Shown here: positions 1 to 64,000 of the stretch, in pieces
Layout of the letters: each line of letters begins with the position of its first letter
Position numbering within the stretch: the first letter of the stretch is position 1
Source: Octopus vulgaris
Lineage: Eukaryota
DNA: 64,000 nt
Assembly (NCBI GenBank): GCA_951406725.2
Contig: OX597830.1
Location: 22,382,001 to 22,446,000, forward strand
Reading direction: 5' to 3'
Position numbers and translations under genes: made by a program
The notes under the pieces: model-generated
Databases searched by the model: none
Told to the model about the DNA's origin: nothing
The model's input: the letters and a program-made list of their open reading frames with translations, nothing else

Positions 1-1099
1 TAGTGTAGATTTAAATTTCCAGAGATATGAGGAGGAATTTCATACTCACAGACGATGAATTTATCCATGGTTAATCCACAATCATTTCATGCTATATGAT
101 AAGGTATTTGCCACATTACTGTTCTCCACGCAAAACTGCTATGTTATGACTTCTAAAAGCTGAAGGAATTTTTTGTGGGGCAAAGAAAATAAAAGAAAGG
201 AAAAAGGAGAAAAGAGACAAGGAAAAAAGAAAAAGAAAAAGGAAAAGAAAAACGGGGAGAAGAAAAGAAAAAGAAAAAAAGAAAAAGAAAAGGAAAAAAA
301 GAAAAAAGGGGAAGAAGGGAGAAAAGAAAAAACGCCCACATAGAGTATACTGTGACAACTTAGAGGGAAAGGGGGTTCTAAAGTGACCAACTACAGAAGA
401 ATTTGTAGCCGGCCTGGCTAGCTTGAATTTGTAAGAATCCAGGAACTATGAGGAGAAAATTACTTTTGACCAGTAAAAACAGCTATTTATTGCCAACCTG
501 ACGTAGTTGAAAGCAGATATGAATCTAAAGAGAATCTAAAGAGATAACAAGGTCAGGAGTAGAGGGGTCAAAGCTATCATCAAAGGGAATACATTAAGAG
601 AAAAAATCTAAGTGCAACCTTAACAAGAGGTCATTTAAATTTATTTATTTATTCCTGTTACTGTCTTAAATTGTTGCCGTTACTATCTATACATTGACAG
701 ACTACCGGTCAAAATTTAGAATATAGTTAACAAGGTGTGATGGAATTGTCTATTATATTGAAATTTCTCATACTACTTTCAAGGGAGTAGCCTTACTTAT
801 TTAATTTTGTAATAGAATTGTGAAGCCTTAGTAACTTATTTTATTAAAGTTGTGTTACCTAAATTAGATTAAGTTCAAAATTAAAATTAAGATTTAAGAA
901 TTAAATAAAACTTCATTTAAGCAACGTACAAGTACTATTTATTTCCTTATGCTCAAAACTCAGGTGCAGTTATAAAGAAAAAGATAACTGTAGTGTGAGA
1001 ACTCGCAGTTATCTACTTAAAAATTAAAGTAATGCTATACTAGTAAAAACCAAGCTATATCTATCTATCTATCTTGTTATGATTATTCTATACATTTAT

Positions 1100-2940
1100 T
1101 CATTTAAAATATTTTAGAGTCTTCAGTTTAGCGTGGACACAAACTTGACCCAATTCGATATGGTTATTTAACAAGCCTTAATATTTTCTATGCCTTAGAA
1201 TTTCATACGTCTCCATGGAGCAGAGTTGGCAACCAACCCTGTTATTTTTATACGGCATTGCTCTCCTAACTATTTCCCAATTAAGGTTGTAATTCCTGTT
1301 TTTATTTTTGAGTTCCCAGATCTTATTTGAAAGTGTGGTGGTACCAGCTTTATGACGTAATTTAAAAGATGAGACGTGATTTCTAACTCTTTTTTTAAAA
1401 TTTATTGTACAACCAATGTAAAAAAAATTGTTATTCTCAGTAGATATGGTACATTTATAGATTACGTTATTTTCCCCGCATAGACCAGGTGCCGGGCATT
1501 TTGACTTAATTCTACACTTACACACAGGAGTAGCAACTTCAGCAGTTGGATTATTCATGGGTAGATGTCTTATGTTCCTGTTATTTTGATTATCATGAGT
1601 ATAATTATCTTTATTATTATTATTATTTTTATAGTTGGTGCCGTTATCTAAAGCATTGTTATTATTTACTGATCTTTTTGCTCCATCTTTCAGGTCTAAA
1701 GTCCTACCATGATTATTTACATTATTGGTATTGTTACTATTATTGCTAGTATTTTTATCTGACTGTATAATGTTGTTATAGATATCACTGATATTTTCAT
1801 TCTCTGTATTTTCCCTATTAGCCTTACTTCTATTATTAACATTATTACTTCTATTAATATCGATATTACTATTACTATTACTCTTATTAATGTTAATATT
1901 ATTATTAGTCATTCTGTGGTTACAGATTTCACCCATGTTTTGATAGTTACTATTGTTGGTAGTATTATAATAATAATTGTTATTGGTATTCATGTTGGTA
2001 TTATTATTTTTATTTCTATCTTTCCTGGCTAGTTTAATGTTGTTATTATTAATCTTTGCTATTAAAGTGGACATATTTGGGAGGGTTGAATAAGAAATCC
2101 TAACTGTTTTCTTAGAAATAATTCTATGATATCTATGAGAGATTGGGAAATTTTTTTCTAGAATTACTTTGAATTTGCTCTGTATATCCGATTGAATCGC
2201 ACAGTTGAAAGGAATATTCAGCCATATTATATCTTTCTTATTAAATTTCCTTGAATTAGAATCAGGGTTCTTAGAATTATTACTATTCATCCCACCAGAG
2301 TCATTGTATTTATTACCATTATTTGTGTGCATCTTTGATTTATCTAATTCTATTTTATCCGAGTTACCTATGATTTGGTCTATGCTTCTATTTGATTTGC
2401 GGTTACCGTGGATCTATTTCTACTTCTATTTCGGGCGTGGTCTATATTGCTGCTTATGTGATTACTGATAACTTCTTTATTAGGAATATGTAAGTTCCCC
2501 TTATCAATGAATGTAATCTTTTGGTTGTATCCTGCCTTAGTTAACGCTGTATTATAATGCTCAGAATGAGAGTTAAATATATCCTTATTGGATGATAATT
2601 TTGAAATTCTTAATGAAATATTTCTGACTAAAGATTCAATTATATTTGGGGGATGATTGGATAATTTATTTACGTATCTCGTGATTTCGCCTTCTTTTCT
2701 AAATGGGTAATGCAGCTTGGAGTTAAGGTCTAACGTAATATCTAGGAAGTTAACTATTTTAGTGCCAGGCTCATACGTTATGCTGAGGTTGAAATCCTTA
2801 AAGAACTTATTAATTTTCTTTCTAATCCTTTCTATACTAGATTTATTATTACTAGGGATAACAAACAGAGCATCATCCCTATATAAACCACCTTGTAGTT
2901 CCGGGATATCCTTACTTATGCATAGTTTTCTGGTGCATCT
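1100..2940 (-). mobile_element. Penelope-like retroelement (Naiad-type), 5'-truncated RT + Asn-rich linker + GIY-YIG endonuclease, degenerate
   Basis: Minus-strand translation gives RT motifs GGLYRDDALF, VNFLDITLDL and SNHPPNII (2640-2900). These are followed by WLNIPFN, ISYSTLPNM, CKCRIKSKCP, VIYKC...YIGCT..FKKR...H, LSNKIWELK and CQLC. After one in-frame TAA at 1178 it continues GLLNNHIELGQVCVH to TGA at 1100. Confidence 0.9.
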
Positions 2941-2994
2941 AAGTTAAGTACCATATTCAAGTAAATTCATTGGAATTGACTTGAATCTTAATTG

Positions 2995-3045
<51 letters not shown>

Positions 3046-4018
3046 TATAAAATTCGAGGAAAAAAACCTTACATTGAATAAAACACATATTGTCATTAAT
3101 AAAGAAAATATAATTAATACATGGAAATTGAAATTAAAATGTCAAAATACATTAAAATATTACACGGCAGTACATATTCATATTAAACTATACATATATA
3201 CATCAACATACACAAATAGATGCTTGCAGACCATGTACATATACAGACGTATAAATATAAAGCTAAAATATACAAACAAATGCATGTTCACATATGCATA
3301 CACAATCTAGTTTGCACGCAAAACCACTGTATCTATAAAGACTATAAGCTAAAATCATGGATATAAAGTTGAAGACATGGGTAAGGGAGGGGGGGACGTA
3401 AAGTTACATGACTCCACAAGTAATGAAAAGTAAGAGAGAGAAAAAAGGGAAGAGAGGGAAAAAAGAAGAAAAAGGGGGGGGAAACGAAAGAAGAAAAATT
3501 ATGTATACAAACTGTGTAAGCACATATACTGCCACATATATATAGAGACAAGTACGCAAACACACAAGTTCAAGTGGATACATACACATACAATCGTGTA
3601 TGTATGTGCTTAAGTACAAACATACGCTCACTTACACATATACAAAGATGTATGCTTACAAATACATATTCGTGGCTTTACACATATTTACATCAAAATG
3701 CCTAGGTTCTGACAACATTGATTTTTTAAAAAATGGTGAGTGTAATAATAAAAAATTATATGAAAGACATGTAAAATATAACACCCTATTTCGGATCATC
3801 TATAAATTAAATATCAAAGTAAGCCTATACAATATAATAACATGAAATAAACTAAGTCGAAGGTTTTTCCTAAGGAATATGTAGAAATATAAACAAAATA
3901 TATGCACGAGACTTTGCTATACGGAATGAAATCTGCATAGCGCGAAACAAATCCATCGGTGCGTTTACAGACTAGTCCAAGAATCAAAATTCAAAAATAC
4001 AAAAAGATAAAATATACT

Positions 4019-6490
4019 CTATCCATATGGGATATTTATGTTTGAGATTTTAAATTTGGTTGCATGCCTGCATGAGTTCATCAGCTCACTTCTTTGATTC
4101 AAAGAATTATTGTCTTTGAATAAAATATAAAGTTTCTCTAACAGGCAAAGATTGCACTTAAAATTTTTCTTGTGTGCTCCATGTCTGTATGGTACCGCTC
4201 TGTCCAGAATGCTCCATGTAACGTTAAAAGGTGGGGTTTCCTTTTCTTTTAGTTCCCAGACATATTTTGCTAGGCTGGTCCTCTTCCTATTTTCTGGGTA
4301 TCTAAATGCATTTTCTGAAGCCCCTGTATAGGTCTTGCATTCCGATGAGACTTCTATTTGTACCTTGGCTCTATAAATGACCCCTTTTACTAGACATTTC
4401 CCTTCCAACGGACTGGAGGATTCATTTTTACAATTGCATTTCTTAAGGGGCTCGGCACCATGCTTAATATCAATCAGATTCCTATTATGCTGGCTAATGT
4501 AAGAGATGAAATTTCTGCAACAAGAATAGCTAACCTTAAGGGTTCTTCTATTAAATATTCTATAGAATTTATGGTCCTGCTTAAAATGCCTAGAGGCTAA
4601 TTTCAAAAATTCCTTACCTATATTAGTCTTTACGGCCAAATTGAAAGCCGGGTTTAACCACAAAACTTTCCTGATCCTAGTTCTTCACGCAGCATTATTA
4701 CCAGCATCAAGCTGGTTGTACTGGATCTTCTCAGAGAATCCACTATTCCTTAATGTGCTATCGTAATAAGGTGCAGCATTATGGAATGCTGCCTCATCCG
4801 AAGAAATTGAAGATATTCTTCTACCTACATTGCCGACTAAGTTCCTAAGGATAACTGGCGGATGGTTCGAATCTTTGCTAATATACGATAGCTTGTCATT
4901 GGGCTTACGGTAAAGTTTAAATCTATCTGACCTTACATTAAAATTTACATCTAAAAAATCTAGACTTTTCAGGTTAGTATCTATTGTAACCCGTAAGCCC
5001 ATCCTTTGGAAGAAAGCAATAAGGTCCTTCCTGAGTCTATCTGATTCATGGCCGTTTAAATTATGGGTGGCTATAAGGCCGTCATCCCTATATAAATCTG
5101 CATCTATAAATGGGAATTCTATTTTTAGATTATGAAGAATAAAGGCTCTTATGAGCATACATAACTCTGCCCCGTCATATGCCCCCATCGGTACATCGAA
5201 AAGAGAATCCTCACTCTTCTTAATCCAGGTGGAATCCTCGAAAAAAAGAAGTGATTTCCTCGCACGCATAATAATATCAATTTCCGAGCTATCGATGCCG
5301 ACATACTGCTTGGCGAAGTCCAATGCCCTTAGGAGTAACGTCCTAGATATTGACGGGTAAAAGTCAATAATATCGAATTGTGTAAAACTGCAATTATTCT
5401 TATAGCTAATACCTTTAAACCACTCTATGACTGACTTACTATTTTTCCAAATTCTCAAGTCTAATTCACTATCTTAGTTAAAATACGTTCCAAAATATAT
5501 TTGCTAATAATGGCTATCTCAGTTTTAGCCGGATTTATCAATCTACATTTGGGGTTTCTATTACAATTGGCTTTATGGTCTTTTAGTGTAATAAAAGCTG
5601 GTCGTGGGGAAAGATATTCAATCCTATCACTAATCTTGAGATTGTTAACTATTCCTCTTGCTTCCAAATTCACCTCTTTGTATATATTTGCGTTATCTTT
5701 TTTGTAAGTATCTGTGACACTATTTGAAATCAAACGCTTATAAACGTCCTTATCAAGTGCATATAAGTTCCTTGTCTTATCAGAATTAATGAAGATCTTA
5801 TTCGAGTTGTTAATCTCCTTAATTTTTTCTTACATATTTCTCTGTAATTGGTTGCTATATTTGCGGAATTTAATTTTCCTAATAAGTTCGAAAAGGTCTT
5901 TCTCGAAGGCTTCTAATTCTGGAATAGGTGGTGGATTTCTGGGAGATTTAAGTCCATATTTGTTTCCGTCGGTTTTCTGTTTAGTATCAAAGAAGAAGGC
6001 TTTCCATCTCAATCTTCGAACAAACTCTTCCGTTTTCTCTATAAGACCTTTGAGATATTGCTTCCGTTCAGGGATAGGTATATTTTTCTGAGAAAAATCC
6101 AGCGGGTAAAGTTCCATCTTTTTCAGCTGTTTATTCTTCCTACTTGTGCAGAGTCGCTCAAACTTTTATAAGGAGCGGGTTAGACCGGAGTAACACATAA
6201 ATGTGAAACAAGGTCGAAAAAAGAGTACTCAAATACCAGTGGTAGAGTAATATGCTTTATTTAAAGCAGCATATTTATGTTTGACATTTTAAATTTGTTG
6301 CGTGCCTGCATGAGTTCATCAGCTCACTTCTTTAATTCAAAGAATTATTGTCTTTGAATAAAATATAAAGTTTCTCTAACAGGCAAAGATTGCACTTAAA
6401 ATTTTTCTTGTGTGCTCCATGTCTGTATGGTACCGCTCTGTCTAGAATGCTCCATATCACGTTGAAAGGTGGGGTTTCCTTTTCTTTTAG
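4019..6490 (-). mobile_element. Penelope-like retroelement (Naiad-type), near full-length RT + GIY-YIG, disrupted by stops/frameshifts
   Basis: Co-linear ORFs 6117-5830 (KNIPIP, RRLRWKAFFF), 5733-5461 (TLKDHK, CRLINPAK), 5458-4685 (FDIIDFYPSI, MGAYDGAE, LYRDDGL, FLDVNF, SNHPP) and 4663-4019 (WLNPAF, CNC..CL, CNLCLLEK, LNQRSE, CRH). 6272-6490 is a direct copy of the ORF 3' end (about 4035-4250), the pseudo-LTR arrangement typical of PLEs. Confidence 0.93.
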
Positions 6491-7681
6491 AGCATTTGGC
6501 ACTCATGCATTGAGGTTTTTGTATCTTAACTCATTGAATAAAAGTGACAGGTGACATCACGTGAGCATCCCATCTACTGGGCCAATTCCTTAGCTGATTG
6601 GTGCAGATCTTTGTGGATGAGCAGTGCTCCCCTTAGATAAAGCTGTTTGGTCATTCAGGAATCTGCCAAGTGGTGTTGTCATCTCCTGGTCAACACCAGG
6701 TGACCAATGTCCCAAATTGCCTGCATGCAGGTTGGGAGCTGCGGTTTCCAGTGACATCTTCAACCTACTGCCCCCCCTCCCATCATTACAGGGCTTGGGG
6801 AGTTGTGGATGTGGACAGGTCCTTTGGCTTGCATGATGGAGTTTTAAAGTGAAGTGCAATCTGTACAGAACTGGCCTTACCCTTTACACCCAGGGTTTAT
6901 CTGCTGTGGCTTAGCAAGCTGGGATGATGACAGAGAGGTGCTTGTCCTTCTCTTAGACAGGCTGCTGATCATGGCTAACAAGCCCTATCTGCTTGGAGCA
7001 GTCTGGTTATACTGCGCCAGACACCTGCAATCATCCTCTCCTGCTAGTTTAGATTCAGGTGGTACCATGGGGAGGTCAGAGTAGGACTTGGGATTTGCAT
7101 CGCTCTGTGGAAGTCTTAGCCCAGTATAGTGCTTGTCCAAACTAGCATTTGGTGACTATGTGGACCCCCGTATATTATGATATACCATTGTGGTATACGG
7201 GGGTAAAGTAATATCTTTTGGGTTAATAAGAGTCAAGGTAATAAACATCAAGAAATACGACGACAAAATAATATTGACTGCAACATTTGTTCTGTCACTA
7301 AAAGGAAATACAGCAACTGGTATAACATGAATAAATCTGTCAAATTAATACATAGCTACAAAGTACTTCTGATGAATGTTAGAAGAAAACATGAAGCATG
7401 GCATCATAGATTCCGGTTACAATTTTCTCCTCACTGAAGATGCAAAGATAAATTAAACTGCTGTTATAGCTGATGTTAGGATGATTGGCTAGTCTATCAT
7501 GTTAAGGGGTGGACAGCCTGTGTATGGCTAGATGGACTGGTACCTAAAGTTAAAGGGCCATTGTGTTTTCCGGAATTCTCAGTTGTTTTTGTTGCCAGGT
7601 GATGTGCCAGCTGTGATTCTTCGACGCGGTTGATGAAGCTGGTTCAAGGGAAGGTCGCAATTCGTTGACGGGGTCACCAAA

Positions 7682-8302
7682 TGTAGTGGTTATATGTGTA
7701 TCAATGAACATAGATGGAAATGGAATGTGTATGTAAACAAATACGTAAACCGATCCATAATTGAAAAGAATTTATTTTCAGTGTTTGATTCGTTATACAC
7801 TACATACAAAATGTAGGTACACTACATACAAAATGTAGGCAACTGCTACGAGTTGCTAGAAATACAGAGTACATTCGTGGAATTCATATTAGGAATGAAT
7901 GTATTTGTGTGTGTGCGTTGATCATTTGAAATAGTAGTCGATCGTAGCACTTCAAATCATTTCTCTCGGTCTCTGCCAAAACCTTCTGTAGGTGGACTAT
8001 CTCGTCTGTCTACCCCGTTTGTCTGCCCACCTCTCTTGTTTTACCACGGTTCTATAATATTTGTGGCAGCTAGAAAGACAGACATACTGCAGCAGAGTTT
8101 GTACCTAAATAGGTCAGCACCTGTCCAGTTGAACTTCGCCTGACATGACGAGGTCGTAGGTCAAAGGGAGATGATCAATCAATTTTTGATAGGACAAAGA
8201 AAACCTTTTTTCACACCTGTTGATCGTCGTGGTTTGGACGACCAAGAATTCTTGGATTCGGTTTCGAATCTCGACTTCGAGAAGGAAGTGTTAATTCTTA
8301 CA
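7682..8302 (-). mobile_element. LTR of gypsy-type element with adjacent tRNA-Trp PBS
   Basis: TGTAGTGG...TTCTTACA termini as in the LTR at 13157-13742. PBS TGGTGACCCCG (minus) at about 7668-7678. The leader 7612-7680 is nearly the same as 13087-13156. Confidence 0.75.
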
Positions 8303-8372
8303 CAGGAGTTTTCCAGTTCTAATTCATTGATGGGTGATGTGAAAGCAGTGATTCTTTGACGGGGTCACCAAA

Positions 8373-9078
8373 TGTAGTGGAAAAAGGTGTAGCACAATGT
8401 TGAGATCGCAGATGAAATAGGCATGTGGATGACTTCAAAGCAAAACAATGGAAAAATATTGGGTTGTAGTTTAAATAATTTATTTAAATGACACTTGCAT
8501 TTACTTGTATACACAAATATTTCACTTCATCACATGATTACCAACTGCTTTGAGCTGGTGAAGAAATTAACAGGGTACATACTGTGAATATGATTGGGTA
8601 GATCTGGACATGTTTTATATCTGTGTATGTGTTAGTCATTCAGTAGTGTCTGTTTAGGGTCTGCAACATCGTCTGTCGTTCATGTTGAATATCTGAGAAA
8701 TTACTGGCTGGGTATCACGTGGCATGTCTCTCTCTCTCTCTCCGTCCCTGACTTGACTATTTCTCTCACTAATTGTCGGTCTCAGAATCTGACTTTCTGA
8801 CTGACTGTACCTTGACGGATTGCCGTATTTATGAAGGTCATGGTAGCTAGGACAGACATACCACAGGAGAAATTGTACCTAAGTAGGTCACCTCCTGTCC
8901 ACTTGAACCCTAAATGACATGGCTGAGGTCAAAGGTTGAAGGAAACAATCCATCATTTTGTGACTGAACAAAGAAATTTCTTTTGCACCTGTTTGGTCAG
9001 TGGTGGATCAGACAAGTGAGAAACATTAGATTTAGTTTTGAATCTAAGCTTGGAAAAAAGGAAGTGTTAGTTTTTGCA
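8373..9078 (-). mobile_element. Second, diverged LTR with tRNA-Trp PBS
   Basis: Starts TGTAGTGG next to cggggtcaccaaa. It shares motifs (gtacctaa.taggtca, aggtcaaagg, gaagtgtta) with the neighbouring LTRs. Confidence 0.65.
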
Positions 9079-9199
9079 TATATGATTTTCCAGAATTGGA
9101 AGGCCCTGTAAAGGGAACTGGTTGCTTCTTTACACCTGTGGGGTGCAACTTGGGTGCAACACAATTTCCTTTCTTTAGATTCCAGAGACTACCAGTCAG

Positions 9200-10147
9200 G
9201 AACAAGTAACGCAACCTTAAAAAATATATATAACTCTTTATTTTCTTATTTACGAAAGAAGTTCGCTGGTATCTTGGTATCCACTAGATGCGAAATAGCA
9301 AGGCTGAATTTTAACGTTTGTAAGCTTGTTACAACAATTCAGCAGCAACAGAACAGGTATTCAACAGCAACAGAGCAGGTCGTCATGGCGCTATATAGGA
9401 AAACGCCCTAGTCATTGTCCCCTTCAGTCTCTAGCGCATGCGCATGAGGGAACTTCCCTATGCCTTTCCAGAAGGTTCTAGAAGGTTCCAACCCCGCACA
9501 TGCGCACTGAAGAAGGACGTTCCGCACATGCACACTGAAGAATGACGTTGCGTGTGCGCACACTAGAATATGGGACTCTAAAGCGGTTGCCAAAACAGTT
9601 TGTATATAGGCGGGCAACCTTGAAAAAAAAATTTTCCAAAGAAGAGGAGCATCTGCAGCTTTACCGCTCAACTCTCTTAGGCGTCTCAAAAATTCAGACG
9701 GAGTCCTATCTCCCAACTCCTCATTCGCCATCAATTCATTGAAGCGACTTTCCTTGCTTCTAGTATTCCGTTTCACCACTTCTAATCTAACAGATACATA
9801 AGTGGCATCTAGAGAAGGATTCGTAATAAGATCTCTGGCAGTAGTTGCAAGTTGAGGAGGCATACAACTATAAAGAATTTGCAACTGCTGCTCAGAAGAA
9901 ACACTATGTGCACAAAAATATGCCTCTAGTTGTGCAAACCAAAGTGCGGCATCACCCGTGAAAATAGGTAATAATGCCACAGACATGTAGTTTTTAAAAA
10001 TTTTACTAGATGAAAGGGAAATAACAACGAAAAGTTCTAGAAGGTTAGGTTCCAACCCCACACATGCGCACTGAAGAAGGACGTGTCGCACACGCACACT
10101 GAAGAATGACGTTGCGTGTGCGCACACTGGAATATGACGTCACTACA
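9200..10147 (-). mobile_element. Rearranged LTR-retrotransposon remnant with gag fragment
   Basis: Gag-like LPIFTGDAALWFAQLEAYF...EELGDRTPSEFLRRLRELSG...WKIFFSRLP, homologous to the gag at 11918-13038. It is flanked by about 100-bp direct repeats (about 9476-9571 and 10034-10136). The minus strand begins TGTAGTG at 10147. Left boundary uncertain. Confidence 0.75.
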
Positions 10148-10670
10148 GCCCCATGATGTGCAAGCCATTTATTTTGGGATTGATTTTATGGCACACTTCG
10201 AATGTATGCCTCGCAAATTGTTGAGCATCGAAGTTATGGTGTGATAGCCATTCCTCAAAAATATCTAGTGATGTTTGTACATCATGGTAGGTATTGTTCA
10301 TTTGTGAGAAATATTCTTTTTGTCTCTTATCTGTTCCCATATGGCTGTTACTTTTGTTTCGATGTTGTTTTCAATAGGTGCAGCTTGTATTATGTTCATG
10401 AGGTTGGGTGTATTTCGGTATATGTTGCCCCATTGTGTTCTGTATTGCGTTTTTGTAGTGGTTTTACAGAACCTAATGATGTCGCCCTTGTCAGTACTGC
10501 TGTATTTCTTCATAACTTTCTTGATAAAGTTATATCTTGCACCTCTGACTTTTTTTTTTTCCTTTTTCTGTGGTATTGTTGGTTTCATCCTCTTCGTCGT
10601 CTGAAGTGGGATTGGGATCGTAAAGTTTGTCTGTGAGTTTTTGTGCTGATGTTTCTATTTTGTCAGCAGC
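10148..10670 (-). pseudogene. Endogenous viral element: densovirus/parvovirus-like NS1 fragment (region just upstream of SF3 helicase Walker A)
   Basis: Frameshifted reading ...RYNFIKKVMKKY...YHDVQTSLDIFEEWLSHHNFDAQQFARHTFEVCHKINPKINGLHIMG resembles the segment before GxxxxGK[T/S] in densoviral NS1. This is recognition from memory. The Walker A itself is cut off by an insertion. Confidence 0.7.
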
Positions 10671-10710
10671 TATGTCCACGTCTTTTTGTCTGATGACATT
10701 TTTGTCCAAC

Positions 10711-13700
10711 TGTAGTGGATGCGTGGATGTATTAATAAATACATAAGTTGTTTTGTAATAAATTAGAGATTTATTTTCACTACATCAATTTGTAAGCAAT
10801 GCTACACATTGCTTGTACAAAAATGCATATTAAATAATGCTTGCAAAGAATACATATTAAAGAAATGCATAATACATGATACATATTAAGGAAGAATATG
10901 TTTGATGGTGTGTGTGTGTGTGTGTGTGTGAGTAAATCATGCAGGACAGTCACCTTTATGCATTTTCTCTTGTCGTCTCCTGAAATGCGTGGCGTTAATT
11001 TAGGCGTCAGCTCTGGTTCTCCCCAGATACCGATTTTTCTGTTCTATTTATAAAATCTCAAATAGCCAGAAAAATAGATATATCGCAAGAGAGTTATCGT
11101 TAAAGTAGGTCGCTGGTCGTTCTGTTAAACTTCGCCTGACCTGCTCAGGTCAGAGGTCAAAGGGAGACGATCCATCACTTTTTGTCAGAACAAAGGAATT
11201 CTGATTTGGCGCCTTTTTATGCATTGGTATTTGACGACCAATGATTCTTGGGTTTGATTTCGAATCCAAGCTTAGAGAAGGAAGTGCTGCTGGAAACGCG
11301 GATGATTCCGAGGTCGAGCATGTGCTGGAATTCCCGCTTGACAGCCTGGAGACGATCAGGTGGTAACCTTCTGGGCCTTGCAGCAACAGGTGGACCGCTG
11401 GTTTTGATGTGGTGGGTAACGTCGTGTTTTATTGGCTGGTTATGAAAAACTGGTCACGCGACATCTGGATATTCATTCAGGATGGAACTGTGACGAGTCG
11501 TTGTTGTAAGCATTACAGTTGGGCTGACTGTGTCCATTCGAGCGGCTATACCGCGCACAGTAAGCTTGGTGGTGCTGTCGACAAGTCGTCTGTTCTTTAT
11601 GTCTACCAGGAGACCGAAATGATGCAAGAAATCGGCTCCTAAGATAGGGGTCGGCAGTTTAGCGACGACGAATACCCACTGAAATGTGCGGTGTAGTCCT
11701 AAGTTTAATGTTAGGGACTGTTGACCGTAGGTTGGGATGGGTGAATGGTTGACTGCCTGAAGACAGACTGATGTCTCTTTTCTTTTTCCAGAAGTGTTGG
11801 AGACTGGGATGATGCTGACTTCCGCACCTGTGTCAACCAGGAAACGCGTGCCTGTTACACGATCGCAAACGAAAAACAGGCGACTGTGTGGGTGCGAGCC
11901 AGGAACTTCCGTCGCGTTCAATTCCTGGCTGTGCCGTTTCCCGAACTGGGTGAGGAAAATGAGCACGGTACCATACATTTTTGTGCCCGTGTTCCGAATG
12001 TTCGGTGGTACCAACACATGTCATGTGAGTTGCGGGTAGCACTGGGGCTTCGGGACCGTCTGCCATCTCGTCGAGATCGGCTGGTGCTTCGACGCTGGGG
12101 ACTAAGCTTTAGGGCTTGTATTTGGGCTGTGAGGATTTGTATTTGCGCAGCTTGCTGCGTCATTAATGCACGCAAATCCGAAATCTCGGAAGAACTGGTT
12201 TGTGCACGGAAAGGATTGGTACTGGGAGTGGCTGGCGTCACCATCGATACCGTTGGGTATTTGTGCGGTACTTCGGCTATTTTGTCAGCTAGCTCCGCCA
12301 GTTCTTCAAGGGATGTGTTTTCTCTGGTAGACGCGAGAACAACCTGGGTATTGGAGGGCAGACGCTGGAGAAAAAGTTGCTTGAAAATTTTTTCTGGGAG
12401 CGTCTCATCTCCGAGAAGCTGCTTCATTCTACGAAGAAGCTGGGACGGCGTTTTGTCACCCAATTCTTCCGATATCAGAAGCTGGTGAAGTCTTTTTTGT
12501 TGGGATTCTGAGGTTCTGTTTATTAACGTGGTTTTAAAAACTTCATATGAAACAGAACCGGGTGGTGCCATGATAAGGTCACGTATTACGTTCGTCAGAG
12601 GTTGAAGGGAGACGATCCATCACTTTTTGTCAGAACAAAGGAATTCTGATTTGGCGCCTTTTTATGCATTGGTATTTGCTGACCAATGATTCTTGGGTTT
12701 GATTTCGAATCCAAGCTTAGAGAAGGAAGTGCTGCTGGAAACGCAGATGATTCCGAGGTCGAGCATATTAACGTGGTTTTAAAAACTTCATATGAAACAG
12801 AACCGGGTGGTGCCATGATAAGGTCACGTATTACGTTCGTTATTTCTGGTGACAGAGAACCGATAACATGAGAAAGTCGAGCCGCATCGCTCAATATTCT
12901 GTGAGAGGCAAACTGTGCCTCTATATGGTGAAACCACAATGTCGGGTCGTGGGTCCAGAATGGTGGAATTTTTAAAGAGATCGCCGCTTGGAATGCCATG
13001 TCGATGTTGGCCGCTGGATTTTGTTCCGGGAGATCCATTGTTTTCGTCGGAATTTTCAGTTGCTTCGTTGCTGGTGATGTGCAAACTGTAATTCTTCGAC
13101 GCGGTTGATGAAGCTGGTTCCGGGGAAGGCGCGATTCGTTTTACGGGGTCACCAAATGTAGTGGATGCGTGGATGTATTAATAAATACATAAGTTGTTTT
13201 GTAATAAATTAGAGATTTATTTTCACTACATCAATTTGTAAGCAATGCTACACATTGCTTGTACAAAAATGCATATTAAATAATGCTTGCAAAGAATACA
13301 TATTAAAGAAATGCATAATACATGATACATATTAAGGAAGAATATGTTTGATGGTGTGTGTGTGTGTGTGTGTGAGTAAATCATGCAGGACAGTCACCTT
13401 TATGCATTTTCTCTCGTCGTCTCCTGAAATGCGTGGCGTTAATTTAGGCGTCAGCTCTGGTTCTCCCCAGATACCGATTTTTCCGTTCTATTTATAAAAT
13501 CTCAAATAGCCAGAAAAATAGATATATCGCAAGAGAGTTATCGTTAAAGTAGGTCGCTGGTCGTTCTGTTAAACTTCGCCTGACCTGCTCAGGTCAGAGG
13601 TCGAAGGGAGACGATCCATCACTTTTTGTCAGAACAAAGGAATTCTGATTTGGCGCCTTTTTATGCATTGGTATTTGTCGACCAATGATTCTTGGGTTTG

Positions 13701-13742
13701 ATTTCGAATCCAAGCTTAGAGAAGGAAGTGCTAATTCTTACA
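10711..13742 (-). mobile_element. Ty3/gypsy LTR retrotransposon, internally deleted (gag + protease + RT start only)
   Basis: Near-identical LTRs at 10711-11288 and 13157-13742, 4-bp TSD CAAC (10707-10710, 13743-13746) and PBS TGGTGACCCCG (tRNA-Trp). Gag (KIPPFWTHDPTLWF, ELGDKTPSQLL, CWYHRTFG..A.KC..PC), protease FLVDTGAEVS and ILGADFL, and RT start HHIKT..PPVAARPRRL..DLGIIRVSSS fused to the LTR. Confidence 0.95.
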
Positions 13743-13899
13743 CAACAACTTTTTGTCCAATTTTAAATAAACTTTTTAGAAAACAAGATGAACAACAAAA
13801 TCAAATAATCATTGAGAATTTTATTGATAAGATTCAAGTAAAATACTGTGGAAAAATATATTGAAAAAAAGTCATTTTAAAAAGGTAATAAGATATAAC

Positions 13900-14870
13900 T
13901 AATGATTTATTACGATCACTTAAAATTGATGCAAATTATATGCCACACTCTTCAAAAAATCAATTTTTCTTGAATTTGACGGATCTCCTCGAAGAATTTG
14001 AGTCATTTTACTTGAATAAATCCTTCCTCTTCCTTCAGAGTTTTCATTAATTTCCAAATATTCATATGTGCTCCACTCGCCAAATGCTTTATTGCAGAAT
14101 GAAAACTCCCCACAGCATTATTTGTTTTGGGAAGGTCTGATTAACATTCCATACAGCTATTGGGAATGTAGGTGGTTCTCTCCTTCATATAACACCACAT
14201 CCTCTCACAATGCCTCTGTAAGTCAAGTTGAAGTAAGCGATAAATTCAGCAGGTATTTCTTCATCATCCATTAATTTTTTATAGGCCTCGTCGACATCTT
14301 CAATAGGTAGGAAAGCTAATGCTGAAAAAACATCAAACTTTAAGATGGAAGTCAGAGTCTTTATTGTATTCTTCTTTGAGGCCTAAATCTGTAACTTTTT
14401 GAAATACTGATTGACTCAACTGAAACAAACATGCCACAATAGCTGAATTAGGGAAGAATGAATTAAATGCCTTATGAATGGCAACTTCAAAATCTGCCAT
14501 GAGATCAAGAGGATATGCATAATTTTCAATTGCTCAAAAAATAATTCGTATGTCTGCTTTGTTTTGTTTGGCAGTAATATAAAGACCCATGGAAAATTGC
14601 TACCTTTAACTTGTACATGAATGCTAAGCAGTTGAAACCACTGTTCTGGCATAATTTTGAACATTCCATCACATTCCCAATGACGATATGAGGCTATATC
14701 CTGAAGAGCACTTTCTTATGCAAATACTAATATGTGCTGTTGATCCTCAATACCCAAATCATATCTCAGAAACTGTTTGTCATTACCAAGTTTACAATAT
14801 TCTTCAGGTATTTCAAAACTAGTTCTATCTCCTGGATTAGGGGGAAGTCGAGATGTTTGATGAAGTGACA
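13900..14870 (-). mobile_element. MULE (Mutator-like) transposase remnant
   Basis: FLRYD...ILVFA, WECDGMFK..PEQWFQLLSIH, PWVFILLPNKTKQTY and KTNNAVGSFH...NIWKL. Short ttttgtc subterminal-like repeats at 10672-10710 and 13747-13762 on both sides of the gypsy insertion. Confidence 0.85.
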
Positions 14871-14959
14871 TAGAATAAAAAGACACAGCATCATACCAGC
14901 CACCCCTCACTGGATCCTCCACTTGCACTCTCCAAGACTTGTCGCATCATCACCCCAGT

Positions 14960-15390
14960 TCATCTGGGTCTTGTCCATTATTACAGTGGATTATTACAGG
15001 ATTCTTTCTGTAAACATTCCAATGATTTTTGTTCTTTATATATGTTTGATTTTATATAGTTTGTTGGAATATTTGAATTTATTGATCTTTTTAGACACAT
15101 TATATATTCCCCTGTTTATTGGAAGTTTAAATCCTGTTTTGTTTTTCAGAAGTGATGAAATCTGTGTTGTTTGTTTTGGAAGAATTCTCATAGACTGAGC
15201 TTTCTACAAAATTCCTCAGTATTTTTAGTAAAATCTATTATGTCATGTTTGGGATTTGGTGTGAATTTGAGTGCATATTCCAGAAGTTTTATTTCATTTT
15301 CCATCATGTATCACTGTGACAGGTTGATTACTTTTAGTTCTGCTGGTCCCATATTTTCTGGACTCTTCATATCTATCATTGTTTGGCTTC
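14960..15390 (-). mobile_element. Penelope-like element N-terminal ORF fragment
   Basis: KVINLS...EIKLLEYALKFTPNP...TEEFCRKL.L.EFF, the usual N-terminal PLE ORF motif, with multiple stops. Confidence 0.75.
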
Positions 15391-15725
15391 TGGATTAAAT
15401 GGGCTTCAAAAATTCTAAATACATTTGCTGACAATTCTTTTTGTTTGTTAGTAATGTTTTACATTTTTCATTCGTTCATGGCCTTTTGGTCCTGTGCTAA
15501 GCAAGATATAACTGTACTTTAGTTTTTCTTCTATTTTGTTAATAATAAAGTGCGAATTCATGAAGTTGATCCATTTATTATATGCCTCGCATTTGTTCTT
15601 GTTCAGCTAATGTAAGTGTAACGGTATTATTGATGATGCCATTTTTGTAGCCCAAACTTATATTTGGAGGAAAAGAGAAAGAATTAACTTTTTTTTATCA
15701 TATTGTTATGCCATTCTGGATTTGT

Positions 15726-16668
15726 CTATGCATGCAATGTGATTTCTTTATTCTTTTTCTGCATCTCCAGCAAGGAGCCCTTCCTCTTTCTTTTTTTTAC
15801 CACTTCAAATCCCTCCTCTATTCCTGTTGTCTCCTTCACCTCCTCCTGTACCACATCATTCACTCTCTCCTGCTCCTCCAACTGTTTCATTTGTTGCTCT
15901 TTCTCTTCTCTCTGGGGGCACCCCGCCTTCATGTGGCCTTTCTCGCCACACAAGTAGCTTATGGGAGGTCTACCCTCCACCACCACTCTTAATCTCACAT
16001 CTTCAGGTAGTATAATTTCTTCCGGCATTTTGTTCATATCACTTACAGTTGTCTGAACTGCCATCTCAATCCCGTAACCCCACCAGTTGACTCTTTTTGC
16101 CCTTGTCACTCTCAGCATCTTAGCATCCTCTTTCATATTGTTACAAGACTGCAGCAACCATCCATGTCTCATTCAGCTCTGGTGGTACTTTTCCCACCCT
16201 TATTCTGACAACTTGCTTACCACAGTATGTCGATAGGAGCATCCACTCTTCTGTCTTTATGGCATCAGTGGAATGCTTTATCTCTTCATCCTCGCTTGCG
16301 AATCGCACCTCCACTGTGCCATATCTTCTTCCTCTGGTTATGAACATAGTCGCCTTTTTAATCTCTTTCAGACTCTTCTCTATCTCTTCTATAGTTGCTA
16401 CTTCGATTTTCTTTGTCGCTACCTTCAGTGTTTTATAAATCACTGTTCTTCTCTTCACTCCATTTGTTAACTTGAGCAAGGGCATTAATTTAAGGTTGTG
16501 GCTTTCCTTTTCTACTAGCTTGCCACATTCGTTCAGCTTTTTTTGTTCGATTTTAATTTCTCGAACCTCCAAATCTTCTGCTTCAGTTCCTTTGCCTGTT
16601 GCAGCCACACAACTGTGGCTCTTCACTGGTTCAGTCTCCATTCCACTTCTTTTTGCCGGTTCTCCCAT
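15726..16668 (-). mobile_element. Non-LTR retrotransposon ORF1 remnant (RRM-like + degenerate CCHC knuckle)
   Basis: Overlapping ORFs 16668-16141 and 16172-15726 with GTVEVRF, IRVGKVPPEL and VVVEGRPPISYLCGEKGHMKAGCP, then an acidic/basic tail GFEVVKKRKRK. Confidence 0.65.
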
Positions 16669-18221
16669 AAATGGGAAGAAACAAACACAATTCTACAGAA
16701 AACTTGTTAGAGAAAACAGCAATTTCAATCAAGGAACAAACGTGGTACACCCACGAGGGGAGACCTTTAACAACAAAATATCACACTTCAATGGAATCGT
16801 CAAGATTTCAACCAAAAAAACAACACACTGCCACAAAAATTAATGCCATCTGACTTCAATTATTAAATGCAATGTGACTTGCTCATCTGAACAGTCTGAG
16901 CAATAGCTTGGCTTCAATACTTGGAAGTGTCCAGTGTTGCTTCCATGCAATATTTATGGAGCAAAGGCATCTTTGGTGGAGAGTGTTCCAGAAGTTTGAC
17001 CTGCTACCTGTAAAGCACCCAAGCTTCTGACAAATAAAGGAGAGTAGTGATGACAACTGTCTTTTAGATTTGGGTTTTGGTAGACAGGTAAAGAAAAAAA
17101 ATTGGGTAAGAGAATGGAACTCTGTGGTATTTCATTTAGGAAAATTGCAAAATCTGAAACCTTTGTTTTTGAACACTACTTAGGGCTTTGACAGGTTGTT
17201 TGCTAGCCAACATTTTAATGTTTCTGAAAGTAGTATGGGTTATCATTATTTAAAATTTTTTTTTTAATAAGTGAATAGTATGGAACAATGAAAAGATTAC
17301 TGCCAAGTATTATAAACATTAATGCCAGATTGGATTCAGAATCAGCTGTAGTGTCCACAATTTCCAAAGATGATGTAACTTCTAAACTGATTATTTCAAA
17401 CAAATAATGCCTTCTTTCTATGTTTCCTGTGAATTGCAGAGTACCTGGACAAATTCTAATAAATTTAATACTCTTCAAATTTGCAAACCATATTTATTTA
17501 TTTATTTTTGTTGAAGACTGAAAAAATAAAATTTAAAAACCAAAAAACTACTGACTTAATGAGAAAATGTTATTGTGTTGTCATAAAGTTTATATTTTCC
17601 TTTACGTTTGTTCATTCTTATTTATTTATTGTTACACCCTCCTCATACACTTCAACTGCCTGTCTTCCCTATCCGCTCCTGCAATCCACCCATCAGCATG
17701 TCCACTCTCTTCTCTTGTTTACTGTATCAGCATTTCTGTTCTGCTACTCTGCACTATCAAACATTCCCTATTCCCCACTCATTCCTACATACCACCTTCC
17801 TACTGGTTGGCATTGGGAAGGGCATGTGACTGTAAAAACCTCACCAAGGCAGATGCTGGAGCATGATGCAGTCCTTGAGCCCACTGGAGTCTGTCAAATC
17901 ATTCAGCCTTTACCAGCATAGATCATGGATGTTAAATGATGATGATGAAATAGGCAGAGGTTTGTTTTATTTACCATTTCATTCTTATTACTTTATTGAA
18001 TTATATATTTTTTTTACTTGTTTCAGTCATGTGACTGTGGCCATGCTGGAGCACCGCCTTTAGTCGAGCAAATCGACCCTGGGAAATCTGCTATTCATCT
18101 GCTATTCATCTTAGAAATGGTGTAGGTTGATCTCTTAAACAGAAATCAGTAATAAATTTGGTTTAGATCTATGAAAAAGAAATATTTGCAAAATATAATT
18201 TATTAATTAAAAAAAAAAATT

Positions 18222-18469
18222 TTATTTATAAAATATCAAATATGAATAGAGCGATATGATTCCAGGATTCCTTTGTGGGTTTGGAGTTTTGCCCTGATAC
18301 CAACCAAAATATTTGATAACATTTTGTTTGCTAGTGTCATTTGTGATATCGATGAGCCAGGGATCAACCTGCAAACCATCACACCAACCATCACGTCCAT
18401 ACAGCCAAGTTCCATGTTCATTTGGAACAACACCTATTGGTGCTTTGTTTGCGCAACCGAGTGGAGTTC
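18222..18469 (-). CDS. PNGase F-like gene exon 11 (terminal)
   Basis: GTPLGCA...PNEHGTWLYGRDGWCDG..VDPWLIDIT...YLIFYK then TAA at 18224-18222. Confidence 0.92.
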
Positions 18470-21400
18470 CTGTGAGAGAGAGAAAAAGAGAAACAGAAAG
18501 AAGGTGAGAAATGACATCACTAAGTCAATTTGAGTTAACCATTCAGTATTTAAACTGACCATATCTGGCCCAAATACTCTACCCGCTTTGTGTTCAAACC
18601 AGCTAGATCTTGTCTCTCACACCTACCCTACAATGTCATTCGGAAAATATACAATCACACAATTGAAATCTCAGCTAAAAGATACTGCAGGATTAATTTA
18701 AAACAAAGTGAATAAATAAACATTACATTTGACAGTTAAGGAGAGTAAAGTCACATTCAGTTTTAAGTTTCTTAACTCTTTACTCTCTCTTTTACTCGTT
18801 TCAGTCATTTGACTGCGGCCATGCTGGAGCACCGCATTTAGTCGAGGACTTATTCTTTGTAAGCCTAGTACTTATTCTATTGGTCACTTTTGCCGAACTG
18901 CTAAGTTACGGGGACGTAAACACACCAGCATCGGTTGTCAAGCAATGTTGTGGGGACAAACACAGACACACAAATATATACATAGACATATATACGACGG
19001 GCTTCTTTCAGTTTCCGTCTACCAAATCCACTCACAAGGCTTTGGTCGGCCTGAGGCTATAGCAGAAGTCACTTGCCCAACATGCCACGCAGTGGGACTG
19101 AACCCGAAACCATGTGGTTGGTAAGCAAGCTACTTACCACACAGCCAGTCCTATGCCTAAACAAATTTATTTATATCATAAAAATGGAGGGTGCCATGGG
19201 CCAATATACAGAGCAACTAGACGGTATTTAGTGGTCCATATCCAGTTAGCTGTAATGTGTGACCAGGCCCATTGCCAGACTTTGGTGCTTGGGGGATGCT
19301 TCAGAATATTCTGGGTGGGCACTAATTTGTATTGTGAGAAAATTTTCGTAAACTGTATTTTATAAATCTGAAGTGTACCATTGAATAGTGAGAGAGCAGT
19401 GCTGTCCAGTGCACTTCCTTAGTGGTGGGCATGTTAATCAGACATCCAGAAATGTATTGAGAAGATTTTTGTAAACTGTATTTTCTAAATCTGAAGTTGT
19501 ACCATTGAATGGGGAGGGGGGGCAGTGCCATCCAGTGCACCCCTTAGCAATGAGCATGTGTGTGACTCTGTTTAAGTGTACAGTAGGAAGAAAGAGTGAG
19601 AAAAAGTTGTGGGGAAAGAGTACAGTGATGTTCACCACCACGGCCCCTCCAGAGCCTCGTGGAGCTTAGGTGTTTTTGCTCAATAAACACTCACAATGCC
19701 TGGTCTGGAAATCGAAACTGTATTCTTACGACCGCAAGTCTGCTGCCCTAAACACTGGGCCATTGCGCCTCCACTCCAGCTGTTGTGAGGTTCATTGTGC
19801 AAAAGACAAAGAGGAATAAATGCTGTACCTGGAAACAAGTAAGGGATGGTGACAGGGACAGCATCCAGCCACTGAAAGTACTGCCTTAAGTCTCATCTAA
19901 CTCATGCTACTATGAAAAAACAGATGTGAAAATGATGATGGTGATATGTCTGCATGTATCTTTCAGCAAAAGATGTCGACACATGAAATAAATTGGTGCT
20001 TTTGAACAAAGTTCGTTATTACACGGGTCATCCTTTCTCATACAAGCTATTGTATAATGTCACAAGCCATTGACTGGTCTGTTGAGAGCCTGTAATCAAC
20101 GATGCTATTATTCAGCAAAAATAGGATAAGGTAGAATTAAAGAACTACTTACCTGCGTTATCAAATGTGATGTTGTATACTTTTCCGTTGATGTTAAAGT
20201 GGTGGGATGTCACACAGAACTCTCCACATCCGTTTTCATCACTACCGTGTCCTGTTATCACAGCATATATCATGATCTAAAGAGAAAGGACAGAGAAGAC
20301 TTGCTTAATTAATCTTACACATTGGCACAAAGCTGCGATATTTTTGCAAAAGGAATTCTTTTACTGCTTAGTCACTGAACTGCTGCCAGGCTTGAACCCT
20401 ATCTCCACGGCCTTTACTCAATCATATAGACCCTTGTATTCTATCTGGAACTCGCTTCATTGTTCGCTGAAGATACACCTATATGTACACTAGATATGTC
20501 ATAAGGTTTTGTGTTCCACAGAATTAGTATTTGTTTGCTCCATGTTAATCTATACAAATGTACAAGCATAACTATGTGCTTTAGGAGTTTTCTTTGGAAC
20601 CACATATTTTGGGTTCAGTTCTATAACACTTTCAGGTTGGCCTATGCCCTAAGGATGAAATTTGTTAGATGCAGAATTTCATTATTCATACATATATGTG
20701 TTTGTCTGTGTCTTTGCATTGACACTGCTTGGATAGCAGTGATATTTGTCTATGTCCCCAAAATTGGGAGTTTGCTGTGCAAAGAACAGTAGAATAAAGT
20801 ACATTACTTGAAAAAAAGAGACATTTGGTCCAAGGAAGGGCTGTCTTGTGTAACCCATGTCAATATGAAAAGAGCAGGTGACAAGCTGGCAGAAACATTA
20901 GCACGTGGGGCGAAATGCTTAATGGTATTTACGATCTGCCTTTCATCCTTTCGGGGTCAATAAATTAAATACCAGTTGTGTACTGAGGTCGATCTAATCA
21001 ACTGGTCCTCCCCCAAAATTTTGGGCCTTGTGCCTAAAGTAGAAAAGAATATAAGACGAACAGGTGTAAAAATAATTAAATATTCACAAACACATACACT
21101 CATGCACATACAGACCATTTTCTGTCATCCAATTTTCATTCATAAGGTATTGTTGAATCCAAGGCTAGGGTAGAAGACACTTCCTCAAAGTGCCACACAC
21201 TGGGATCAAATCTAGAAGCAGTGGAATTTGAACTCAGAATCTAAAGAGCCAGAAGAAATGCTACTAAGCAGTTTGATACAGTAATGATTCTGCCAGCTTG
21301 GCTATATTCTTTTCTACTCTAGGCACAAGGCCCGAAACTTTTGGGGAGGGGGTCAGGTGATTAGATCGATCCCAGTATATAACTGGTACTTAATTCATCG

Positions 21401-40781: not shown

Positions 40782-41055
40782 TGTACGAGGCTTTGATAAA
40801 ACTGAACTTCAAACTTGTGCTTTCACAGTTGTAAACACACCACTGTTCTCGTAACAATTTATATCTCTATCACTAATTACATCCAATCCAAACACGCCCT
40901 AGAAATTGGTTGTCAAGCGTGATCTCCCCTGATTTAGAATACCTACATATATTCACACGTACGTGTGTGTGTGTGTGATATATATATATTTATATATATT
41001 TCGTTTTGGGGTTTGGTTTGCAAGATTCTTTATATGAGTTCGTGTGTTGAAGCAT

Positions 41056-63371: not shown

Positions 63372-64000
63372 CTATTCAATGGAAAATGGTTCTAATGTGT
63401 AACCACACTTAGACAATAATATATCACAAATATATACAAATGCTGTGTATGTGTGTAGAAATAGGTGCTTTTCTTTGAAGGTTAATAAATTCTTTGAATT
63501 CCTTATTGACAAGATAGGAAACTAGCTAAATATTCATTATTTACATTTGACGGATATTTGTCCTCATCTTGTTTGTTGTTAACACAATGTTTTGGCTGAT
63601 ATACTCTCCAGCCTTCATCAGGCATCTTGGGGAAATTTCGAACCTGGGTTCTCATTCCTAAGGTATTTTTCAATGTTGGTGTTGTTATTATTACTATTAT
63701 TATAATTATTATTCAGGTCACTGCCTGGAATCGAACTCGGAATCATCATCATCATTGTTTAACGTCCGCTTTCAATGCTAGCATGGGTTGGACGGTTTGA
63801 CTGGGGTCTAGGAAGCCAGGAGGCTGCACCAGGCCCAGTCTGATCTGGCAGTGTTTCTACAGCTGGATGCTCTTCCTAACGCCAACCACTCTGTGAGTGT
63901 AGTGGGTGCTTTTTACGTGCCAGGCGAGTCAGGCAACGGCCACGATCGGTTAGTGCTTTTTACGTGCCACCGGCATGGAGGCCAGTCGAGGCAGCGCTGG

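Follow-up and report, generated by a model that had tools for sequence, protein, structure and literature searches.

The window analysed here, 64,000 nucleotides of the Octopus vulgaris genome (G000:C17:22,382,001-22,446,000 in a 2.8-Gb genome), carries in its first 16 kb a series of transposon and viral coding remnants that all point in the same direction. This tract is the right end of a one-strand block of ~54 kb, reaching from about -36.5 to +17.5 kb, where negative coordinates denote positions left of window base 1 and 200 kb of left flank were added (264 kb in total). The co-orientation of the remnants is real and non-random, and it is larger than the 16 kb in which an earlier note on this DNA had described it. 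Predicted from sequence, the block probably acts as a uni-strand, downstream-of-gene cluster of PIWI-interacting RNAs (piRNAs) fed by read-through of P0002, a plus-strand gene that ends shortly before it. The earlier note had proposed the 16 kb as the distal end of a plus-strand precursor of antisense piRNAs, stopping short of a convergent PNGase-like gene. The extension to about -36.5 kb bears out the first part of this proposal, and P0002 supplies a plausible source for the predicted precursor.

In the window portion of the co-oriented block (1..17500, continuing ~36.5 kb leftward through loci L003-L006), seven protein blocks and two pieces consisting of a long terminal repeat (LTR) followed by a primer-binding site (PBS) can be recognized, and all nine lie on the minus strand, as the earlier note had stated. 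Pfam matches to open reading frames (ORFs) of the window are confined to this strand (three DUF7041 gag matches, a retroviral protease and a Mutator-like element (MULE) transposase at E 0.0011, below the cut-off); among six plus-strand ORFs between 1 and 17 kb none has a Pfam match, and six-frame read-through gives a single plus-strand match, noise at E 0.056. The left part from -60 to 0 kb follows the same rule: 15 of its 144 scanned ORFs have a Pfam match and 15/15 are minus, including gypsy integrase, reverse transcriptase (RT), RNase H and gag, RT and endonuclease of long interspersed nuclear elements (LINEs), Helitron Pif1 and the helix-turn-helix of mariner/Tc1 elements. When transposon and virus coding blocks are merged between -35.5 and +16.7 kb, 20/20 are minus. 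Part of this co-orientation comes from internal duplication, so duplicated copies were collapsed into families before testing, with merging that is approximate in both directions; about 16 families are left and the bias holds (two-sided P 3e-5). It thus survives both leftward extension and comparison with 12 control regions of 50 kb placed at fixed round coordinates. The remnant library used for these counts comprises 116 labelled ORFs from the focal region, eight NS1 loci and the 12 controls; one ORF carrying a sequence of a short interspersed nuclear element (SINE) and producing false matches (L071:8036-8866), as well as matches over high-copy repeats, were removed before all counts. Independent queries agree with this picture, as 82/82 high-scoring segment pairs of an 84-ORF library drawn from outside the focal region are minus, a profile built from the best 120 external Penelope-like proteins gives 17/17 minus matches across the 264 kb, and the four exact PBS matches in the 264 kb are all minus and all within the block. 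Outside the block, the left flank is strand-mixed (6 plus, 7 minus), and the right 46.5 kb of the window contain no remnant blocks.

The block also stands out by its density and by what it lacks. Coding transposon cover amounts to 58%, compared to 0-24% in the 12 controls, which hold 0-10 blocks each and in which 21/46 neighbouring pairs are concordant. Three SINE and miniature inverted-repeat transposable element (MITE) queries return no match in the 54 kb, whereas they match 25 times in the right-hand 46.5 kb, 39 times on the left side and 263 times across 600 kb of controls; this sustains the near-absence of these families claimed in the earlier note. High-copy segments occur at 0.37 per 10 kb (two in the block, both RTE tails) versus 1.0-11.0 in the 12 controls. 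One non-autonomous element, missed by the SINE/MITE queries, lies inside the left edge (L006:5085-5410, about -34.9 kb) and is related to a MITE at -37.3 kb. A tRNA gene search of the locus found none.

Nesting with target-site duplications shows that several of the insertions arrived independently, and the description of the remnants as fragmented and nested is upheld. An LTR element (9107-10147) interrupts the NS1 piece and is flanked by a 4-bp target-site duplication; a Penelope-like copy at -12.3 kb hosts a solo LTR from this family, likewise with a 4-bp duplication. Both insertions are minus. Between -34 and -23 kb, a gypsy element is split by a CR1/L2-like LINE and this LINE by an RTE element, all of them minus. 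Direct duplications within the block involve Penelope-like copies (96-99% identity), two RTE elements (94-97%), two gypsy elements (94%) and a 925-bp segment. The ages are mixed: one LTR pair is 98.8% identical, relatives of the Penelope-like elements reach at most 96%, those of the MULE and LINE ORF1 pieces at most 85% over long matches, and the NS1 piece 70%, while the RTE ORFs are still 913 and 1057 aa long. Young elements, too, are without exception antisense to the transcript that is predicted, which implies that the bias acted recently.

The proposed source of transcription, P0002, is an uncharacterised plus-strand gene of 524 aa with 11 exon matches from -60.7 kb to a stop codon at about -38,663 and no match in a Pfam search. 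The block starts ~2 kb behind this stop codon (about -36.5 kb), and read-through from P0002 would therefore be antisense to all remnants. No plus-strand AATAAA is present for 7.4 kb past the stop, a gap found at 53 of 10,200 control positions. None of the sequencing-run holders listed for this DNA is recorded as RNA, and for 14 of them the RNA type is a guess; four such runs were compared in the form of contigs only. Contigs from two of the four join the last two exons of P0002 across a GT..AG intron, and two of the studies therefore hold RNA. Long contigs of at least 99% identity cover 13706..18039 in all four probable RNA-seq runs, and the NS1 piece is covered by shorter contigs in three of them. 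At the junction between gene and block (L161, 97% likeness), spliced contigs extend to about -37.7 kb, and none of the four runs covers the stretch from -36.4 to -35.1 kb, a gap to be read with the knowledge that contigs drop rare molecules and that the haplotypes are ~2% apart in the last exon of P0002. Contig depth cannot rank the parts of the block and A>G versus T>C counts are symmetrical, so that neither was used; SINE contigs swamped the joint tables and made splice joints within the block unreadable. Four Piwi-domain loci, of PIWI or AGO type, are present in the genome.

The pattern recurs at other loci that carry parvoviral NS1 sequences. At the eight other Parvo_NS1 loci of the genome, 75/94 non-viral blocks lie on the strand of NS1, and concordant neighbours number 78/101 at NS1 loci against 21/46 in controls (Fisher P 3e-4). 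Five of the eight are co-oriented, namely C19a (9/9; 23.96-23.99 Mb), C14 (13/15), C29 (15/16; 19.146-19.161 Mb), C12 (27/27) and C9 (11/14). The C12 block (L201-L170, G000:C12:68.486-68.574 Mb) spans ~88 kb, is SINE-poor and 36/39 co-oriented, and contains a Helitron/pogo unit of ~1.6 kb about seven times. The C9 block (L067-L193, G000:C9:9.500-9.588 Mb) is of the same length (~88 kb), SINE-poor and 24/29 co-oriented, and ends in a tandem repeat of ~8 kb with weak ankyrin similarity; the C14 block (L072-L074, G000:C14:64.32-64.35 Mb) is SINE-free and co-oriented. Two of the blocks share the position behind a gene: the final exon of a DNA polymerase eta-like gene lies within a few kb of the end of the C12 block, and that of a FAM69/DIPK-like gene within a few kb of the end of the C19a block. 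Both genes are oppositely oriented, so that read-through would be antisense here as well. On its sense side, C19a is also flanked by a gene (GTPase exon), and the focal locus likewise has a gene on its other side. A Pfam gene hunt detected no gene along the right edge of C9, C14 or C29, nor along the left edge of C12; one of its rounds took 127 of 228 candidate ORFs and skipped a tandem repeat. An RNA-polymerase match at C29 was rejected as a transposase tail. As separate observations, multiple NS1 fragments in the C14 block share one strand with a piece of CRESS-type Viral_Rep, with transposases of the Merlin/IS1595-like and Tc1 types and with ankyrin-repeat stretches from host genes, and a strand-mixed region on C20 holds an NS1 piece with a downstream ORF (L098:5567-7547), which we take to resemble a parvoviral capsid N-terminus on account of a phospholipase-A2-like motif.

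A mechanism that would produce such a block can be outlined. Some P0002 transcripts would run past their normal end across the block, and cleavage of this long plus-strand RNA would yield primary piRNAs, which in a uni-strand cluster are 26-31 nt long, 1U-biased, PIWI-bound and derived from one strand. Here they would be antisense to a parvovirus and to families of gypsy, LINE, Penelope-like, Helitron, mariner and MULE elements. Selection would keep antisense insertions, which would provide useful guides and whose poly(A) signals would fall on the strand that is not transcribed, and would remove sense insertions, which would give no useful guides and could end the transcript, along with the very abundant SINEs. 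The exclusion of SINEs may, speculatively, reflect avoidance of self-targeting, or in part the youth of much of the block. A far-reaching version of this scheme is considerably more doubtful: behind housekeeping genes, octopuses might maintain a family of read-through archives, each 30-90 kb long, serving as antisense traps for all transposon classes and for DNA-virus pieces (parvoviral NS1, CRESS Rep) and thus as a heritable antiviral and anti-transposon memory, from which SINEs are purged since anti-SINE piRNAs would attack SINE-bearing host RNAs.

Several observations weigh against reading the block as a read-through piRNA cluster. A possible normal end of P0002 exists in the form of an ATTAAA at -37,180, and AATAAA hexamers are distributed across the whole block without clear strand asymmetry, with ~50 on the plus strand near the 58 on the minus strand. 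A contig bridging P0002 and the block is not among the matches listed, with contigs showing presence rather than absence, and the RNA-type contigs are strandless, so precursor direction cannot be read from them. As the right-hand gene also ends beside the block, local geometry alone cannot fix the direction. Among the NS1 loci, three of eight are strand-mixed (C19b, C5, C20), the C12 count of 27/27 is inflated by a tandem repeat, and the upstream-gene layout was seen at only two of the five co-oriented sister loci in a search restricted to Pfam. One control, K1 (L101-L104, G000:C1:50.00-50.035 Mb), is 7/7 co-oriented (P 0.016); its strand-uniform pieces are old LINE and Penelope-like remnants at low density. 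Finally, the older pieces (MULE, ORF1, NS1), at 70-85% identity to their best relatives, may no longer silence anything.

The same features can be accommodated by other explanations to different degrees. Sense insertions could be purged merely for disturbing transcription if the plus strand made a long non-coding or read-through transcript, or contained a large unannotated intron, with no piRNA role at all. Transposons inside transcription units show an antisense bias, and the upstream plus-strand gene, the RNA-type contigs and control K1 all fit this explanation; it is nevertheless unlikely, because it accounts neither for the transposon cover of 58% and the viral piece nor for the association with other NS1 loci (75/94) and the lack of SINEs in both orientations, and because controls with host exons (K5, K8, K11, K12) show no such block. 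In mouse, moreover, transposon content downstream of genes is not by itself associated with read-through (PMC11615739). The opposite polarity, in which minus-strand read-through from the PNGase-like gene would make the remnants sense, and either their orientation would follow from insertion preference along that transcription or the block would make sense or dual-strand small RNAs, draws on the contigs that run unbroken from the MULE to 18,039, ~180 nt from the PNGase stop, and on the sense-side gene of the C19 sister block. It appears improbable in view of the nine AATAAA hexamers that lie on the minus strand no more than 730 nt from the stop of the convergent PNGase-F-like gene, and of the genes that abut the focal, C12 and C19 blocks on their antisense sides, with no sense-side gene found at C12 in the Pfam search. 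To our knowledge, no insertion mechanism common to LTR, LINE, Penelope-like, Helitron and DDE elements gives a complete strand bias.

Direct duplications of Penelope-like, RTE, gypsy and 925-bp segments would be expected if the block were a local transposon nest that owes its single orientation to tandem duplication and same-family nesting. The family-collapsed test largely refutes this idea, with ~16 unrelated families left after collapse, and it has little probability when the insertions of one class into another, flanked by target-site duplications, and the recurrence of the pattern on other chromosomes with different contents are taken into account. It is about equally hard to sustain that the block is a decayed former cluster, now silent or active only distally: long contiguous contigs do lie mainly at the distal end and the oldest pieces share 70-85% identity with their relatives, but the young elements (LTRs at 98.8%, Penelope-like elements with relatives at 96%, RTE elements with ORFs of 913 and 1057 aa) are all antisense too. 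A single giant composite mobile element with co-oriented cargo would explain many co-oriented ORFs within one block and is the least credible of these possibilities. Among 40 scored candidates elsewhere, the two halves of 13.8-16.9 kb, MULE and ORF1, each occur alone and in no case jointly, which argues against the block being one mobile unit; no second copy of the junctions has been seen, and the sister blocks differ in content and order. A uni-strand cluster fed by P0002 read-through thus remains the favoured reading.

Among known systems, the mosquito core piRNA clusters, which are formed when upstream genes are read through (Qu et al., bioRxiv 10.1101/2022.08.22.504762), share with the octopus locus an intergenic block directly following a gene, viral fragments that lie antisense to the transcript predicted there and a concentration of endogenous viral elements (EVEs); the octopus EVE derives from a DNA virus (parvoviral NS1, and in a sister block also a CRESS-type Rep), and for the octopus locus read-through and piRNAs are predictions. 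The piC-DoG clusters of mouse (PMC11615739) present the same dense antisense transposon fragments over more than 50 kb downstream of a protein-coding gene, and clusters of the slug Arion vulgaris (PMC11615739) the same uni-strand antisense layout in a mollusc, with those of Deroceras laeve (PMC12506671) as a further slug comparison. The octopus differs in being a cephalopod host, and, as far as compared, the viral fragment and sharp SINE exclusion are not among the features described for the mouse and slug clusters. For the matching layout, piRNAs have been demonstrated in slug, mouse and mosquito (PMC11615739; bioRxiv 10.1101/2022.08.22.504762). The flamenco and flam-like loci of Drosophila, which the earlier note had taken as its model, are likewise transposon-dense one-strand blocks recognizable from genome sequence alone (PMC10643416). 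They are, however, transcription units with their own promoters, flamenco expression being that of somatic follicle cells, and the strand bias of flam-like loci is described as driven only by Gypsy (PMC10643416), whereas six classes are biased in the octopus block and a host gene abuts its start. Because LINE, Penelope-like, Helitron, DNA transposon and EVE pieces share the bias, flamenco is not the nearest model. In octopus, piRNA-sized loci with ping-pong and phasing have been reported (PMC12479628), and Piwil1/2 are conserved in molluscs (PMC6128900). A literature search on octopus and cephalopod piRNA clusters and EVEs, with most subscription papers outside its scope, found no such cephalopod locus, and the main text of PMC11067994 includes no cephalopod. 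The novelty assumed by the earlier note therefore narrows to a new host group rather than a new kind of locus, since uni-strand antisense-transposon clusters have already been described in a slug (PMC11615739).

From left to right, the window remnants, all on the minus strand, begin with a 5'-truncated Penelope-like element at 1103..2943, which retains the RT end, a CxCx5C linker and, at its C-terminus, a GIY-YIG endonuclease according to profile matches and motifs, adjoins a (TA)n run and is 84-96% identical to ~40 relatives in the genome. Its thumb and endonuclease are separated by a long Asn-rich insert that keeps the frame (window 1500-2400). The second Penelope-like element (4022..6490) bears stops, frameshifts and a short duplicated 3' piece and shares 96-98% identity with copies located between -20 and -11 kb. 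It is followed by the unannotated 925-bp segment (6632..7555), whose duplicate at -11,316..-10,392 is 96.6% identical and in the same orientation; just left of the segment, near 6.5 kb, a short piece is matched by many RNA-type contigs. Two gypsy-type LTRs, each followed by a PBS, occupy 7669..8304 and 8360..9078, and the first PBS is presumably of the tRNA-Trp type. The NS1 fragment (10149..10705, with a remnant of ~30 bp at 9079-9106) is frameshifted and has its Walker A motif interrupted by the rearranged LTR element with a DUF7041 gag piece described above (9107..10147). A gypsy element with an internal deletion follows at 10706..13744, consisting of the two 98.8% identical LTRs, a PBS, gag (DUF7041) and protease, with neither RT nor integrase found in it. 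PBS matches, the LTR pair and Pfam support the two PBS-bearing LTRs, gag fragment and deleted gypsy element of the earlier note. Its MULE is present as a decayed transposase at 13800..14900 with the weak Pfam score given above, and its LINE ORF1, frameshifted at 15729..16692, is L1/Tx1-like, has genomic relatives at ~83% identity and matches the ORF1 upstream of endonuclease-RT-zfRVT in locus L125. Its third Penelope-like fragment is at best an unconfirmed candidate N-terminal piece of another such element (15050..15500) based on motif resemblance; in the Penelope-like profile search and in homology searches, it matched nothing but itself.

The two Penelope-like elements, which match 1,738 database proteins, had been labelled Naiad-type. 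Naiads are described as having an N-terminal GIY-YIG endonuclease and a DKA motif, and Hydra-clade elements as having a C-terminal GIY-YIG, RWK, DKT and a CxCx5C linker (PMC8557442). The Naiad identity is rejected, as the endonuclease is C-terminal in both elements and element 2 carries DKT. Element 2 further shows RWK and has lost the last linker Cys, and element 1 has the linker and C-terminal endonuclease with its N-terminus missing; by motifs rather than a tree, element 2 fits the Hydra clade. The octopus copies share with Hydra-clade elements the C-terminal GIY-YIG, RWK, DKT, CxCx5C linker and (TA)n neighbourhood, and differ in being broken (PMC8557442). A search of the RT against PDB gave no match. 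The viral piece, announced as a densoviral NS1, matches Parvo_NS1 loci of the genome on the minus strand (tblastn E 4e-26, 51% identity), with a closest genomic relative at 70% identity, and full-length NS1-like proteins at E 1e-9, one of which is named Parvoviridae nonstructural protein; a comparison with phage records gave no match. Homology to the SF3 helicase region thus identifies it as a parvoviral NS1 EVE, and the label is corrected from densoviral to parvoviral, the finest placement that the comparison allows.

Regarding neighbouring genes, the convergent PNGase-F-like gene bounds the block on the right with its last coding exon (18222..18524, minus strand). Further minus-strand exons in the window comprise a signal-peptide-like ORF (40269-40808), a FAD_binding_1 exon (58575-59006) and an adjacent ORF (62825-63391), the latter two likely belonging to a diflavin reductase gene. 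Far to the left, in L009-L020 (about -172 to -69 kb), a large unit whose plus-strand exon is Ser/Glu-rich is present in three diverged tandem copies, 79-92% identical; this is an unannotated tandem gene family.

If piRNAs are confirmed for this block, cephalopods would have defined master loci for transposon control, and the genome sequence alone would suffice to locate them by the signature of a sharp SINE-free one-strand block behind a gene. The degree of surprise is moderate, since this kind of locus is already known, including in slugs (PMC11615739). Should the favoured reading be true, read-through cluster biogenesis would be extended from mosquitoes and mammals to molluscs, and the exclusion of SINEs would represent a testable case of clusters avoiding self-targeting. 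It would also allow a direct test of whether endogenous DNA-virus fragments supply inherited antiviral guides in octopuses.

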